43,349 bases of DNA from a virus. Its lineage: Duplodnaviria > Heunggongvirae > Uroviricota > Caudoviricetes. The stretch lies in IMG/VR virus record IMGVR_UViG_2541047690_000002; one strand, 5' to 3'. The notes under the pieces were generated by a model, which saw only the letters and a program-made list of their open reading frames with translations, did not search any database and was not told the origin of the DNA. Every line of letters begins with the position of its first letter. Positions within the stretch are counted from its first letter, which is position 1. Positions 1,459 through 43,349 of the stretch are shown in pieces. The position numbers and the translations under genes were made by a program.

Positions 1459-2622
1459 TTACACATCATTAGTACCTTCCTTATTTTTTGACTGGGACAA
1501 ATTTGGGACCGATGGGTTCAGGATCGAGTCTATTTGCCGTGCGTGTTCGGTAAGGTGATTAGGTGCAAGGTGAGCATATCGACGAACCATTTCGATAGAC
1601 TCCCAGCCTCCCATTTCCTGTAACACTGACAATGGGACTCCGGCTTGAACCAGCCAACTTGCCCAGGTGTGTCTCAAGTCGTGAAATCTGAAATCATCAA
1701 TACCAGCCCGTCTCAGCGCCGCTTTCCAGGCTGTGTTTGCGTCATACCGCATCTTCCTTACTGTTGGCGCTTTCGTTCCGTCTGGTTTGGTACAGCTTTC
1801 CTTGTACACAAATACCCAACGGTGATGATTCCCGATTTGTTTTTTCAATACGCGACATGCAGTATCATTCAGCGCAACGCCAATTGCGCGGTTTGATTTA
1901 CTCTCTTCCGGGTTTATCCATGCCACCCGGCGCTGCATGTCTATTTGTTGCCATTCAAGGTTGATGATGTTCGAGCGTCTTAAGCCTGTTGCCAGTGCAA
2001 ATTCAACAACAGACTTTAATGGCTCCGGACATTCATCAATCAGCCTTTGTGCTTCATGGGGCTCCAGCCAGCGGATCCGTTTATTCTTTGGTTGAGGCAC
2101 TTTAATAATTGGTGCCTTATCCAGCATTTTCCATTCACGCTCTGCGGCTCTTAGTAGGGCTTTTATAAATGAAAGATGCGTAGCCTTCGTTGCAACAGAC
2201 GCTGGTTTTGGCTTGTATTCTGGAACAGGTTTCCCTTTTTTTCTGCATGCTTCTGCCCTGAGTTTCCAGTTTTCCTCATTACGCCGGTTCGTCATTTTCT
2301 GCATTGCTGAATAAATTTTTGATTCAGTAATGTCTCTTAGTTGCATTCCTGCGAAATGTTGAAGCCAGAATCCGATCCGGCTTTTGTCATCGTCCAGTGA
2401 TTTTTTATGTGCTTTCTCTTCAAGCCACCTGACACACGCTTCCTCGAACGTTATATCAGGTATTTCACCAAGTTTGCTGACCCGCCATGCTTCAGCCTTT
2501 AGCTTGTCATGGAGTTCTGTCGCCTGCCTTTTGTCCTTTGTTCCAAGAGACTGTTTAAATCTTTTACCGTTCGGCAATGTGAAACTGGCGTACCATATTT
2601 CACCTCTGCGGAAGAGTGACAT
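1459..2622 (-). CDS. int: Tyrosine-type site-specific integrase, P22-like
   Basis: 387-aa ORF; translation recalled as very close to phage P22 Int; C-terminal catalytic-domain signature HDLRHTWAS...RRYAHL (His-X-X-Arg and the Tyr nucleophile region); adjacent to tRNA. Confidence 0.9.
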
Positions 2623-16849: not shown

Positions 16850-17233
16850 ATGCGTGATATTCAGATGGTTCTTGAGCGTTGGGGAGCGTGGGCGGCTAAT
16901 AATCATGAAGATGTGACCTGGTCGTCCATTGCCGCCGGTTTTAAGGGATTAATTCCTTCAAAAGTAAAATCTCGCCCGCAATGTTGTGACGATGACGCGA
17001 TGATCATTTGCGGGTGCATGGCCCGTCTGAAAAAGAACAACAGCGATTTGCACGATTTATTAGTAGATTATTATGTAGTCGGTATGACATTCATGTCACT
17101 GGCAGGTAAGCATTGCTGCTCTGATGGTTATATCGGGAAAAGGTTACAGAAGGCTGAGGGCATAATTGAAGGGATGTTAATGGCATTAGATATCCGGTTA
17201 GAGATGGATATCGTTGTTAATAACTCTAATTAA
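16850..17233 (+). CDS. quuD: Late-gene antiterminator Q (QuuD-like)
   Basis: 127-aa product from ATG 16850 ([24 protein letters not shown]...); matches DLP12 QuuD from memory; Cys-rich zinc-binding region. Confidence 0.85.
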
Positions 17234-17372
17234 TATGCCAATTGTTTACTAAAAATTATTAAAAATGGGGCGTTGAGACGCCCCCAAAAATAAAGGGTAA
17301 TATATAACAGAAGGTTTATATAGTTAGAAGCAAGGTTGTGCTTCTAAAGGAAGTGGCTTGAGGGAGCCACTT

Positions 17373-17412
17373 ATATGTTGGGGAGGCAACGCCTCCCGCA
17401 ACATATCTTTTT
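17373..17412 (+). terminator. Intrinsic terminator downstream of Q (tR'-like)
   Basis: Long near-perfect hairpin ATATGTTGGGGAGGC-AAC-GCCTCCCGCAACATAT followed by CTTTTT; preceded by further hairpins at about 17266..17283 and 17354..17371. Confidence 0.55.
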
Positions 17413-17422
17413 CGTAATCAGA

Positions 17423-18520
17423 TTAGAACTGGTAAACCAGACCTACAGCAACGATGTCATCAGTGCTTACACCGAGTGCTTTAGTGAAGTCATTTTTGTC
17501 AAGCAGGTTGATTTTGTAATCAACGAAAGTAGACATATTTTTGTTGAAGTAATAGGTTGCACCTACATCAACATATTTGACTAAGTCCTGATCGCCCCAT
17601 ACTCCAAGATCTTTACCTTTAGATTGCAGGTAAGCAACGGACGGACGCAGACCGAAATCGAACTGATATTGTGCAACAGCTTCGAAGTTTTGGGCTTTAT
17701 TAGCAACGAAGTGATCAGCAAATACAGTCATATTCTGGGTTTCAGAATAGGTAGTGGCCAGGTAAATGTTGTTAGCGTCATATTTCAGACCTGCGGCCCA
17801 AACTTCTGCATTTTTACCGGAAGCAAATACTTCAGGAAGAACTTTCCCTGCATTAACTTGAGTGTCGGTACGATCAGATTTCGCATAAGTTGCACCGATA
17901 CCGAATCCTTCGTATTCATAGGTAGCAGAGAAACCGAAGCCATCACCGTTACCTTCAGTGTAGTTATCGAAATCGCTACGATCGTTTTTGCCTTGGTACT
18001 GAGCAGCAAAGTTCAGACCATCAACCAGACCAAAGAAGTCGTTGTTACGATAGGTTGCAACACCAGTGGTGCGACCAGTCATGAACACATCTGTTTGGGT
18101 CCAGGTATCGCCACCGAATTCTGGCAGAACGTCAGTCCACGCACCGATGTCGTATGCTACACCGTAGTTACGGCCGTAATCGATTGAGCCGTAGTCACCG
18201 AATTTCAGGCCTGCAAATGCAAGACGGGTTTTGTCTTTGGAGGAACCTTGAGATTCAGCGCGGTTGCCTTTGAATTCATATTCCCACTGACCGAAACCAG
18301 TCAGTTGATCGTTGATTTGGGTTTCACCTTTGAAGCCAAGACGGGCATAAGTAGTATCACCATCATCTGCATCATTAGAGGAGAAGTAGTGCTTGGCATT
18401 AACTTTCCCGTACAGATCCAGCTTGTTACTGTCTTTATTATAAATTTCAGCTGCCTGAGCAGACATCGCCATCAGTACTGATGCAGCTACAGCAGAAATT
18501 GCCACTGTTAATTTTTTCAT
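17423..18520 (-). CDS. nmpC: Outer-membrane porin, OmpC/NmpC family (prophage moron)
   Basis: 365-aa product with signal peptide ([23 protein letters not shown]) and C-terminal ...VGLVYQF beta-barrel terminus; same place and orientation as nmpC in DLP12. Confidence 0.9.
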
Positions 18521-19109
18521 CGTGAGCCCTTTTTTTTGAACTATTATTAAAAAATGATGTCACTGCGCGATAAATATTCATCTAATCAATGTGATTATTT
18601 CAAGATGTAAGTTTTGGTTTCTCGTTTGATTTGTGAAGTAGATCTCTATTTTTATCTGAACTTTTTTCTATCGAATCCTATTCATAGCTCTTGGCTGAAT
18701 AAAAATAAATCTATTAGCCAATTTATATTAACGGCTGTTATTTATAAGTGCTCTATAATTTGAAGGTTCAATTTAAATCGGCTAAAAATAACACTGGAAA
18801 TTATTTGTTGGTTATTTGTTGAGGTTTTCTTATGTATTTGTGGTGGTGTTTTGAACACTCGGTAGCATTCTCATAAATATCATTCAGTGGTTTACGTACG
18901 TAAAAAATTGGTTATGCTGTTAAGAGTGGTTACTTCGTCACACAGCTTAAACCCGCCGTCGAGCTGGTTTTTCCATTTTTTGAGTCTCGATATTAGCTGA
19001 TAACTCAATACCTGAGTTATTCACTGACTCCGAGTCTGTTACGTTTCTGCTTTTTTGCGATACGTTGTATTCCCTCAATTTACACCCGCTTTGTCTGCGA
19101 GGTGGGGTT

Positions 19110-38199: not shown

Positions 38200-38943
38200 A
38201 TGACACAGACAGAATCAGCGATTCTGGCGCACGCCCGGCGATGTGCGCCAGCGGAGTCGTGCGGCTTCGTGGTAAGCACGCCGGAGGGGGAAAGATATTT
38301 CCCCTGCGTGAATATCTCCGGTGAGCCGGAGGCGTATTTCCGTATGTCGCCGGAGGACTGGCTGCAGGCAGAAATGCAGGGTGAGATTGTGGCACTGGTC
38401 CACAGCCACCCCGGTGGTCTGCCCTGGCTGAGTGAGGCCGACCGGCGGCTGCAGGTGCAGAGTGATTTGCCGTGGTGGCTGGTCTGCCGGGGGACGATTC
38501 ATAAGTTCCGCTGTGTGCCGCATCTCACCGGGCGGCGTTTTGAGCACGGGGTGACGGACTGTTACACGCTGTTCCGGGATGCTTATCATCTGGCGGGGAT
38601 TGAGATGCCGGATTTTCATCGCGGGGATGACTGGTGGCGTCACGGTCAGAATCTCTATCTTGACAATATGGAGGCGACTGGTTTTTACCGTGTCGCACTG
38701 ACAGAGGCGCAGCCTGGCGACGTGCTGCTGTGCTGCTTTGGTTCATCGGTGCCGAATCATGCCGCCATTTACTGTGGTGACGGCGAGCTGCTGCACCATA
38801 TTCCTGAACAACTGAGCAAACGAGAGAGGTATACCGACAAATGGCAGCGACGCACACACTCCCTCTGGCGTCACCGGGCATGGCACGCATCTGCCTTTAC
38901 GGGGATTTACAACGATTTGGCCGCCGCATCGACCTTCGTGTGA
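38200..38943 (+). CDS. K: Tail assembly protein K (JAB/MPN plus NlpC/P60-like domains)
   Basis: 247-aa translation matches lambda gpK; HSHP motif of the JAB domain present. Confidence 0.92.
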   Translation: MTQTESAILAHARRCAPAESCGFVVSTPEGERYFPCVNISGEPEAYFRMSPEDWLQAEMQGEIVALVHSHPGGLPWLSEADRRLQVQSDLPWWLVCRGTIHKFRCVPHLTGRRFEHGVTDCYTLFRDAYHLAGIEMPDFHRGDDWWRHGQNLYLDNMEATGFYRVALTEAQPGDVLLCCFGSSVPNHAAIYCGDGELLHHIPEQLSKRERYTDKWQRRTHSLWRHRAWHASAFTGIYNDLAAASTFV

Positions 38944-39488
38944 AAACGGGGGCTGAAGCCATCCGGGCGCTGGCCACACAGCTTCCGTCGTTTCGCCAGA
39001 AACTGAATGAGGGCTGGTATCAGGTGCGCATTTCCGGGCGTGATGCAGGCGAAAATGAATTATCTGCCCGTCTTAATGAACCGCTGGCAAATGGTGCCGT
39101 GATCCACGTCGTTCCGCGTCTGGCGGGTGCCAAAAGTGGCGGTGTGTTTCAGGCGGTGCTGGGTGCGGCGCTGATTGCGGTGGCATGGTGGAACCCTGTT
39201 GGCTGGCTGGGGGCCGCGGCTGTATCGGGTCTGTATGCAGCAGGGGCCAGTATGATCCTGGGTGGTGTGGCGCAGATGCTGGCACCGAAAGCCAGGACGC
39301 CCACGGCAGCCAGTACAGATAACGGCAAACAGAACACGTATTTCTCGTCACTGGATAACATGGTTGCCCAGGGCAATGTTCTGCCTGTTCTGTACGGGGA
39401 AATGCGCGTGGGATCACGTGTGGTTTCTCAGGAGATCAGCACGGCAGACGAAGGGGATGGTGGTCAGGTTGTGGTGATTGGTCGCTGA
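38841..39488 (+). CDS. I: Tail assembly protein I
   Basis: 215 aa; N-terminus MAATHTLPLASPGMARICLYGDLQRFG matches lambda gpI; overlaps K 3' end out of frame; the middle segment is shorter than I recall for lambda I. Confidence 0.85.
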   Translation: MAATHTLPLASPGMARICLYGDLQRFGRRIDLRVKTGAEAIRALATQLPSFRQKLNEGWYQVRISGRDAGENELSARLNEPLANGAVIHVVPRLAGAKSGGVFQAVLGAALIAVAWWNPVGWLGAAAVSGLYAAGASMILGGVAQMLAPKARTPTAASTDNGKQNTYFSSLDNMVAQGNVLPVLYGEMRVGSRVVSQEISTADEGDGGQVVVIGR

Positions 39489-39548: not shown

Positions 39549-42500
39549 ATGGGTAAAGGCAGCAGTAAGGGGCATACCCCGCGCGAAGCGAAGGACAACC
39601 TGAAGTCCACGCAGCTGCTGAGTGTGATCGATGCCATCAGCGAAGGGCCGGTTGAAGGTCCGGTGGATGGATTAAAAAGCGTGCTGCTGAACAGTACGCC
39701 GGTGCTGGACAGTGAGGGGAATACCAATATATCCGGCGTCACGGTGGTGTTCCGGGCCGGTGAGCAGGAGCAGACACCGCCGGAGGGATTTGAATCCTCC
39801 GGCTCCGAGACGGTGCTCGGTACAGAAGTGAAATATGACACGCCGATCACCCGGACCATCACGTCGGCAAACATTGACCGTCTGCGTTTTACTTTCGGCG
39901 TGCAGGCACTGGTGGAAACCACCTCAAAGGGGGACAGGAATCCATCGGAAGTCCGCCTGCTGGTTCAGATACAACGTAACGGTGGCTGGGTGACGGAAAA
40001 AGACATCACCATTAAGGGCAAAACCACCTCGCAGTATCTGGCCTCGGTGGTGGTGGATAACCTGCCGCCGCGCCCGTTTAATATCCGGATGCGCAGAATG
40101 ACGCCGGACAGCACCACAGACCAGCTGCAGAACAAAACGCTCTGGTCGTCATACACCGAAATCATCGATGTGAAACAGTGCTACCCGAACACGGCACTGG
40201 TCGGCGTGCAGGTGGATTCGGAGCAGTTCGGCAGCCAGCAGGTGAGCCGTAATTATCATCTGCGCGGGCGTATTCTGCAGGTGCCGTCGAATTATAACCC
40301 GCAGACGCGGCAATACAGCGGTATCTGGGACGGAACGTTTAAACCGGCATACAGCAACAACATGGCCTGGTGTCTGTGGGATATGCTGACCCACCCGCGC
40401 TACGGCATGGGGAAACGTCTTGGTGCGGCAGATGTGGATAAATGGGCGCTGTATGTCATCGGCCAGAATTGCGACCAGTCGGTGCCGGACGGCTTTGGCG
40501 GCACGGAGCCGCGCATCACCTGTAATGCGTACCTGACCACACAGCGCAAGGCGTGGGATGTGCTCAGTGATTTCTGCTCGGCGATGCGCTGTATGCCGGT
40601 ATGGAACGGGCAGACGCTGACGTTCGTGCAGGACCGACCGTCGGATAAGGTGTGGACCTATAACCGCAGTAATGTGGTGATGCCGGATGATGGCGCACCA
40701 TTCCGCTACAGCTTCAGCGCCCTGAAAGACCGCCATAATGCCGTTGAAGTGAACTGGATTGACCCGGATAACGGCTGGGAGACGGCAACAGAGCTTGTGG
40801 AGGACTCGCAGGCCATTGCCCGTTACGGTCGTAACGTCACGAAGATGGATGCGTTTGGCTGTACCAGTCGGGGGCAGGCGCACCGCGCCGGGCTGTGGCT
40901 GATTAAAACAGAACTGCTGGAAACGCAGACCGTGGACTTCAGCGTGGGTGCCGAAGGGCTTCGCCATGTACCAGGTGATGTCATTGAAATCTGTGATGAT
41001 GACTATGCGGGGATCAGCATCGGCGGGCGCGTGCTGGCGGTGAACAGCCAGACGCGGACACTGACGCTCGACCGTGAAATCACGCTGCCATCCTCCGGCA
41101 CCACGCTGATAAGCCTGGTTGACGGGCAGGGTAATCCGGTGAGCGTGGAGGTCCAGTCCGTCACCGACGGCGTGAAGGTGAAAGTGAGCCGGGTTCCTGA
41201 CGGCGTTGCCGAGTACAGCGTGTGGGGGCTGAAGCTGCCGACGCTGCGTCAGCGCCTGTTCCGCTGTGTGAGTATCCGTGAGAACGATGACGGTACGTAT
41301 GCCATCACTGCCGTGCAGCATGTACCGGAGAAAGAAGCCATCGTGGATAACGGGGCGCACTTTGACGGTGACCAGAGCGGCACGGTGAATGGTGTCACGC
41401 CGCCAGCAGTTCAGCACCTGACCGCAGAAGTCACCGCAGACAGCGGGGAATACCAGGTGCTGGCGCGCTGGGACACGCCGAAGGTGGTGAAGGGGGTGAG
41501 CTTTATGCTTCGCCTGACCGTGGCAGCGGACGACGGCAGTGAGCGGCTGGTCAGCACGGCCCGGACGACGGAAACCACATATCGCTTCACGCAGCTGGCG
41601 CTGGGAAATTACAGGCTGACAGTCCGGGCGGTAAATGCATGGGGACAGCAGGGCGATCCGGCATCGGTATTGTTCCGGATCGCCGCACCGGCAGCGCCGT
41701 CGCGGATTGAGCTGACGCCGGGCTATTTTCAGATAACCGCCACGCCGCATCTTGCGGTTTATGATCCGACGGTACAGTTTGAGTTCTGGTTCTCGGAAAA
41801 GCGGATTGCGGATATCAGGCAGGTTGAAACCACAGCCCGCTATCTTGGTACGGCGCTGTACTGGATAGCCGCCAGTATCAATATCAAACCGGGCCATGAT
41901 TATTACTTTTATATCCGCAGTGTGAACACCGTAGGCAAATCGGCATTTGTGGAGGCCGTCGGTCGGGCGAGCGATGATGCATCCGGCTATCTGGATTTTT
42001 TCAAAGGCGAGATAGGGAAAACCCATCTGGCTCAGGAGCTGTGGACGCAGATTGATAACGGTCAGCTTGCGCCTGACCTGGCTGAAATCAGGACGTCCAT
42101 TACGGATGTCAGCAATGAAATCACGCAGACCGTCAATAAGAAACTGGAAGACCAGAGTGCGGCAATTCAGCAGATACAGAAGGTTCAGGTTGATACAAAT
42201 AATAACCTGAACAGCATGTGGGCTGTGAAGCTGCAGCAGATGCAGGACGGACGCCTTTATATCGCGGGTATTGGTGCTGGTATTGAGAACACCCCTGACG
42301 GCATGCAGAGTCAGGTGCTGCTGGCGGCGGACAGGATTGCGATGGTTAATCCTGCGAATGGCAACACAAAACCGATGTTTGTTGGTCAGGGCGATCAGAT
42401 ATTCATGAACGACGTGTTCCTGAAACGCCTGACGGCCCCCACCATTACCAGCGGTGGAAATCCACCGGCATTTTCCCTGACACCGGACGGAAAGCTGACC

Positions 42501-43046
42501 GCTAAAAATGCGGATATCAGTGGCAGTGTGAATGCGAACGCCGGGACGCTCAACAATGTCACGGTAAATGAAAACTGTACGATTAAGGGCATGCTGGAGG
42601 CGACTCAGGTCAGAGGTGACTTCGTTAAAGCTGTATCCAAATCATTTCCGAAACAGGCTGGTACGTGGGGTAACACGGAAACACCAGACGGGACGGTTAC
42701 AGTCACCATCAGCGATGATCATAACTTTGACCGTCAAATCATTATTCCGCCCATTATCTTTAACGGAATAGCGTATAGCGATCCGGGAAGTGGTAATAAC
42801 CCGGGAGGTACAAGATACACGGGTTATGGTTTTGAAGTTCGCAAAAACGGTGTATTAATCGCATCCAGAGAAACTAAAGGGGCCATTCCCGGTAGCTACA
42901 GTGCGGTTATTGATATGCCGAGTGGCAGGGGAAGCGTCACTCTGGAGTTTAAGGTTTTCCATAAAGGCAATCAGTGGGCAGGTAATATCACCGACTGTAC
43001 GGTGATTGTGACCAAAAAAGCTGCTTCCGGCATCAGTATTCGTTGA
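39549..43046 (+). CDS. J: Tail tip fibre / host specificity protein J
   Basis: 1165-aa ORF; N-terminal and central regions match lambda gpJ; the C-terminal receptor-binding region was not verified against lambda. Confidence 0.92.
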
Positions 43047-43067
43047 AGTTGTTATAACCCATATAAG

Positions 43068-43093
43068 GGCACCAGAAATGGTGCCTTTTTTAT
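43068..43093 (+). terminator. Intrinsic terminator downstream of J
   Basis: Hairpin GGCACC-AGAAAT-GGTGCC followed by TTTTTTATT. Confidence 0.65.
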
Positions 43094-43115
43094 TGCAGAA
43101 AAGCGAGAGGTAATT

Positions 43116-43349
43116 ATGCGTAAAGTTTGTGCAGCCATTTTGTCCGCAGCCATTTGTCTGGCCGTATCCGGTGCGCCTGCATGGGCATCTGAACATCAGT
43201 CCACGCTGAGCGCGGGGTATCTTCATGCCCGGACCAACGTTCCCGGCAGCGATGATCTGAACGGGATTAACGTGAAATACCGTTATGAGTTTACGGACAC
43301 ACTGGGGCTGGTGACGTCATTCAGCTATGCAGGAGACAAGAATCGCCAG
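43116..43349 (+). CDS. lom: Outer-membrane protein Lom (Ail/Lom family), 3'-truncated by window end
   Basis: ATG at 43116 with GAGAGG SD; signal peptide MRKVCAAILSAAICLAVSGAPAWA and beta-barrel start matching lambda Lom; window ends after 78 codons. Confidence 0.88.
   Translation, partial: MRKVCAAILSAAICLAVSGAPAWASEHQSTLSAGYLHARTNVPGSDDLNGINVKYRYEFTDTLGLVTSFSYAGDKNRQ

Follow-up and report, generated by a model that had tools for sequence, protein, structure and literature searches.

The J gene of a lambdoid prophage is a mosaic combining a shaft of the phage 21 type with a receptor-binding tip of the phage 434 type, probably directed at OmpC

The porin recognized by lambda particles can be changed through the C-terminus of the central tail fibre protein gpJ: exchanging this part at lambda position 964, the fusion point of functional gpJ chimeras, suffices to move the particles from LamB to OmpC (Brodel et al., PMC11338833). 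Four indel-rich specificity regions have been described among 1207 natural J homologues (Maddamsetti et al., PMC6646904), and residues 841-861 of lambda gpJ have been assigned to the shaft helices (Ge and Wang, PMC11101478). According to the title of Hantke (1978), phage 434 uses outer-membrane protein Ib (now OmpC); lambda given the 434 J gene attaches to OmpC, as 434 itself does (PMC3509688, PMC11101478), and the 434 central fibre is treated as OmpC-targeting elsewhere (PMC12502783). OmpC was also shown to be the receptor for A8, 1A2 and phi330, either in knockout and complementation experiments or in transduction assays, and phage 21 reportedly has LamB as its native receptor and acquires OmpC through a single mutation. 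For the lambdoid mEp phages, the survey of Hernandez-Sanchez (2008) is cited as giving FhuA as the predominant receptor and OmpC as a secondary one.

The J gene analysed here belongs to a prophage contained in a stretch of DNA of 43,349 nt (the window). The window opens with chromosomal sequence, proA being annotated under its first ~1.25 kb in matching E. coli records, and then carries a tRNA-Thr(CGT) gene (1369-1444) and a minus-strand ORF (1459..2622) that is a probable integrase, an integrase being annotated in that stretch of the matching E. coli records. Given the tRNA gene and the adjoining probable integrase ORF, the prophage would be an insertion at a thrW-type site.

J, encoding the central tail fibre or tip attachment protein, occupies positions 39549..43046 (+) in the ORF list and specifies 1165 aa plus a stop codon. 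It is identified as J by its domain series, by the identity of its hub to that of lambda and by its position between K- and I-like ORFs and a lom-like ORF. The protein matches, in this order and always far above the cut-offs, the families FNIII-A_GpJ (PF24801), Phage-tail_3 (PF13550), Ig_J (PF24421), Ig_J_second (PF24489), Phage_Tail_Tip (PF09327) and Ig_GpJ_C (PF12421, aa 1029-1164); the lambda-like gpJ series of hub, two FNIII/Ig domains, tail-tip fibre and C-terminal Ig-like receptor-binding domain is complete. The gene order is that of lambda-like gpJ loci, with K and I upstream (94-95% and 78% identical, respectively, to their lambda, 434 and 21 counterparts) and the lom-like ORF downstream. 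Upstream, the L-, K- and I-like ORFs are open, as is the lom-like ORF as far as its beginning can be read, and the 1165-codon J frame is intact. Note also that the I-like protein (38841-39488) has 215 aa, compared with 223 aa for gpI of lambda, 434 and 21, and is clearly more diverged than the adjacent K and the J N-terminus (98%). An open frame of 625 aa also runs antisense inside J (40149-42026, minus strand); it has no homology support, and as its composition resembles that of a frame shadowing a long, codon-biased gene, it is unlikely to be a gene.

A sequence-only reading of this DNA had taken J to be longer than its lambda counterpart, and this is indeed so: lambda J (NC_001416 15505..18903; NP_040600) has 1132 aa, 33 fewer than prophage J. 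By BLASTP the two proteins share 82% identity overall, spread very unevenly, and alignment of prophage J with the J proteins of lambda, 434 and 21 resolved four segments. The first (aa 1-820; 39549..42008, +), comprising the hub domains and the two FNIII/Ig domains, is a backbone common to the three phages, in which 800 of the 820 residues are identical to lambda and 807 to each of 434 and 21 (98%), with no length difference and with 88-100% nucleotide identity per 90-nt block. The second (aa 821-949; 42009..42395, +) is of the phage 21 type and aligns with the alpha-helical shaft and the upper central straight fibre of lambda. It is 36% identical to lambda and 37% to 434, compared with 98% to phage 21 and 100% to phi458, and its nucleotide identity reaches 94-99% with 21 versus 20-77% with lambda. 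The third (aa 950-997; 42396..42539, +) is a conserved junction between the fibre and the receptor-binding module, where all 48 residues are identical to lambda, 45 to 434 and 42 to 21, without any difference in length. The fourth (aa 998-1165; 42540..43043, +) is an Ig-like receptor-binding module of the phage 434 type that includes PF12421. Its identity is 40% to lambda, 43% to 21 and 95% to 434 (159/168), with a net gain of five residues relative to lambda; over the last 151 aa of J the corresponding values are 37% for lambda and 96% for 434 (145/151, no gaps). J is thus a natural recombinant of known lambdoid modules, joining a lambda/434/21-like hub, a 21-type shaft, the conserved junction and a 434-type tip.

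The excess length of J over lambda is accounted for by two of these segments (1132 + 28 + 5 = 1165). The 28 residues of the shaft segment that are absent from lambda and 434 fall into two gaps in lambda, of 21 and 7 residues, and amount to four heptads. A monomer AF2 model of aa 800-960 gives helices followed by strands, a weak hint at a pLDDT of 44. We infer that these residues (~4 nm if helical) merely lengthen the fibre. The earlier suspicion that the C-terminus (42400-43046, corresponding to aa 952-1165) does not match lambda is borne out for aa 998-1165 and fails for the first ~50 of these ~215 residues, which belong to the junction identical to lambda. Only five of the 33 extra residues lie in this C-terminal range; the other 28 are upstream, in a second divergent block (the shaft segment) that lies outside it and that the earlier reading had missed, so that most of the extra length of J is unrelated to the receptor-binding region.

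Among fragments of J homologues, long (21-type) and short (lambda-type) shafts each occur with 434-, A8/phi330- and 1A2-type tips, and with the 21-type tip as well when phage 21 itself is counted. Across the junction at aa 950-997, therefore, shaft types and receptor-binding-domain types assort independently in the database homologues, which is the signature expected of recombination at a conserved junction. The junction is thus a probable recombination site, and the fusion point at lambda position 964 used for the functional chimeras lies inside it.

The 434-type sequence extends downstream of J. Just past the J stop codon, a consensus scan detected an intrinsic-terminator-like hairpin with a T run (43065..43094, +), consisting of a 10-bp stem, a 4-nt loop and a T-rich tail; phage 434 has an annotated terminator at the same relative place. 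Next comes the 5′ part of a lom-like gene of the Ail/PagC/OmpX family (43116..43349, +), which runs off the end of the window. Its 78 readable residues are 95% identical to 434 and 94% to phi458, but only 35% to lambda Lom. Since this gene is also of the 434 type, the 434-type block starts near aa 998 of J and continues past the end of the window, and the tip and the lom-like gene seem to move together as a unit.

When the tip (last 151 aa) was compared with phage genomes by tblastn, 74 records showed at least 90% identity, none fell between 60 and 90%, and 169 were below 60%, the lambda tip being at 36%. The same gap between 60 and 90% identity is found among the cluster representatives of a large protein collection. 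The group at or above 90% includes ev099, many Stx2c and Stx1a phages, mEp460, mEp332, Evi and 2B8, with tips 92-99% identical. The tip therefore belongs to a discrete class, the 434-type J receptor-binding domain, and has the same length and indel pattern as 434. The allele itself, and its combination with a 21-type shaft, are already known, for example from phi458, whose J is 99-100% identical across segments two to four (aa 821-1165). The last 249 aa of J are 98-99% identical in phi458, cdtI and Ayreon, and the whole gene, over 100% of its length, has 96-97% nucleotide identity in these three phages and in ev099.

Two other assignments of the tip were considered and rejected. The nearest relative of phi330, WGPS6, carries the prophage tip allele and prompted a comparison with the OmpC-using phi330; the phi330 tip is of the A8 type and only 45-47% identical. 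Identity with the OmpC variants A8 or 1A2 used in engineering was likewise rejected, since the PDB sequence of A8 and the sequences in the PMC11338833 supplement fall in other classes; the A8 and 1A2 sequences as printed contain none of five 14-15-nt words taken from the tip. The overall PDB match of J to the A8 structure 9wca scores largely through the conserved junction. It may be noted that the annotation gives phi330 J (17195-20610) 1042 aa and places a separate small ORF upstream of it; compared with other J genes, the N-terminus seems to have been split or mis-called.

Relative to 434, the tip differs at 35 of 453 nucleotides (8%, mostly synonymous) and at six amino acids, giving a dN/dS of 0.07 at a dS of 0.32. 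Such a ratio indicates purifying selection and hence a domain that is kept functional. The residues that differ from wild-type 434 are at aa 1032, 1036, 1037, 1077, 1127 and 1143; these positions rank among the most polymorphic of the class, and at each of them prophage J has a residue that is common in the class. Like prophage J, the 434B isolate carries W at 1143, but it differs at 1078. As a separate observation, J codons 1050 and 1115 specify D and R in laboratory 434 but N and W in 434B and lambda h434 (imm21). Both sites rank with the most variable ones of the natural class, and the difference between the 434 stocks suggests either laboratory host-range adaptation or stock divergence.

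The 447-nt tip sequence is present at full length in 2091 of 5426 complete E. coli genomes (~39%), several of which hold copies 100% identical to it, and a 750-nt J query hits a median of two and up to 12 places per E. coli genome. Many lambdoid prophages are cryptic, and several J copies reside in many E. coli genomes, as would be seen if the gene were a relic of a defective prophage whose tip has no current function. This reading is most improbable: the J frame is intact, with its N-terminus, domain set and terminator present, purifying selection is strong, and the flanking L-, K- and I-like ORFs and the beginning of the lom-like one are open, those of K, I and lom being confirmed by comparison. 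Furthermore, phi458, cdtI and Ayreon, whose J genes are so close to that of the prophage, are viable phages.

An AF2 model of J aa 1001-1165, built with 32 homologues, has a mean pLDDT of 77, its first 23 residues being disordered in the monomer. The top four PDB matches found with Foldseek (9wcb, 9wca, 8xck and 8xcj; TM 0.72-0.74, E 4e-14 to 9e-14) are all gpJ tips, namely A8 gpJ with OmpC (9wcb) and free (9wca), and lambda gpJ free (8xck) and with LamB (8xcj), while further matches are about nine orders of magnitude weaker. In the model, the Ig-like scaffold is conserved and carries the sequence that diverges from lambda. With lambda as the reference, the indels (at ~1011/1012, 1050/1051, 1077/1078 and 1099-1113) map to inter-strand loops of the model and coincide with the four specificity regions of Maddamsetti et al. 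A LamB-binding domain of the lambda type would be highly identical to lambda J residues ~985-1132, including the specificity loops around 1012, 1048, 1077 and 1107; the prophage tip is not, and has indels at or adjoining all four. Of the checks that the sequence-only reading had proposed, the alignment gives no high identity to lambda at the C-terminus (37-40%, as against 95-96% to 434), and the structure prediction gives a tip that matches the gpJ tips of both the lambda-LamB and the A8-OmpC complexes.

The same reading had held that such divergence would imply a receptor different from LamB, and the comparison supports this, the tip being much closer to that of OmpC-using 434 than to that of lambda. 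The most likely porin of the prophage phage is OmpC, as for 434, and not LamB; we regard this assignment as probable because the tip is 96% identical to that of a phage using OmpC. Ayreon, PhiR34_1 and mEp332, which carry the tip allele, have been propagated on K-12, which has OmpC. In the literature consulted we found no receptor experiment on the prophage allele or on any phage closer than 434, including phi458, Ayreon, mEp460, mEp332, ev099, the PhiR series and the Stx2c/Stx1a phages; a preprint predicting receptors from genomes treats Drexlerviridae GpJ and holds nothing on lambdoid tips. Moreover, the sequenced lambda h434 (imm21) hybrid carries the lom and side-tail-fibre genes of 434 in addition to the J C-terminus, so that the old h434 genetics alone do not isolate the receptor-binding domain. 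Porin choice is also labile in the lambdoid tip family, where few mutations can switch it. These three considerations keep our confidence in OmpC from rising higher. Note that the tip of phage 21, which uses LamB by report, and the A8-type, OmpC-dependent tip of phi330 are 81% identical; at that distance, tip class alone does not give the receptor.

Could the tip be a diverged lambda-type domain that still binds LamB, leaving the receptor unchanged? Its fold is that of the lambda tip, the 48 residues directly upstream of the module are identical to lambda, and the phage 21 tip, only 47% identical to that of lambda, is reported to serve a LamB user, so that a distant relationship to lambda is not enough to exclude LamB. 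However, the prophage tip is only 37% identical to lambda and has indels in all four specificity regions, whereas it is 96% identical to the tip of 434, for which the use of OmpC is documented; continued use of LamB is consequently very unlikely, and OmpC is retained as the preferred porin.

Another reading keeps the tip in the 434 class and holds that loop substitutions have shifted or broadened its specificity, towards certain OmpC alleles or to include OmpF or LamB. The six differences from wild-type 434 do lie at polymorphic positions, laboratory 434 itself differs from 434B and lambda h434 at two positions of the receptor-binding domain, the OmpC-binding tips A8 and 1A2 accept different OmpC variants, and single mutations alter porin use in phage 21 and lambda. 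On the other hand, the low dN/dS indicates that the domain as a whole is conserved and not diversifying, the variant residues are all common in the class, and nothing points to another receptor; we therefore consider such a shift unlikely. In a more specific form of this idea, the loop variants S1032, Q1036, A1037, S1077, R1127 and W1143, together with the long 21-type shaft, would confer a specificity unlike that of laboratory 434, with a restricted or extended OmpC range or a second porin. We give this speculative proposal little credence; if true, it would represent natural porin switching within one receptor-binding-domain class. OmpC, as for 434, stays the best basis for predicting the host range of the prophage, rather than LamB. 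OmpC is expressed in the gut, and its mutation carries a different cost for the host from that of LamB.

The solved lambda and A8 gpJ structures suggest how such a tip may act. The three Ig-like domains at the fibre tip would insert the loops at their lower end into the outward-facing opening of a porin trimer, and upon binding the base of the tip would open and spread while its top closes. The beta-prism fibre would then twist, the helical shaft would flip and partly refold, the FNIII strings would detach and the hub would open for DNA ejection. Prophage J has every element of this chain, and only the loops (and hence, probably, the porin) and the length of the shaft differ from lambda. More generally, the locus shows that lambdoid J genes are built from exchangeable modules, including the shaft, the tip and lom, at a conserved junction, and engineers already retarget lambda particles through the same junction.

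Comparison with known systems places prophage J as follows. Lambda J (PDB 8xck, 8xcj) shares its gene position, domain architecture and tip fold, together with 98% identity over aa 1-820 and 100% over aa 950-997, but differs by a tip that is 37-40% identical with indels in four loops, by a shaft segment that is 36% identical and 28 residues shorter, and by the use of LamB as receptor. Phage 21 J (OL657228; 1160 aa) provides the counterpart of aa 821-949, at 98% identity and including the 28 extra residues, whereas its tip, which belongs to the phi330/A8-like class, is 40-43% identical to that of the prophage. The J proteins of A8 (9wca/9wcb), 1A2 and phi330 have natural gpJ C-termini at the same junction and with the same Ig-like fold, in sequence classes that differ from that of the prophage tip (41-47% identity). 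Phage 434 J (OL657226/OL657227; host range "h434") has a tip module that is 95% identical, of the same length and with the same indels relative to lambda; this 1137-aa protein, however, has a short lambda-type shaft, in place of which prophage J has the long 21-type shaft with its 28 extra residues. Finally, the J genes of phi458, cdtI, Ayreon, ev099, mEp460 and many long-tailed Stx1a/Stx2c phages differ from prophage J by minor allelic differences only.
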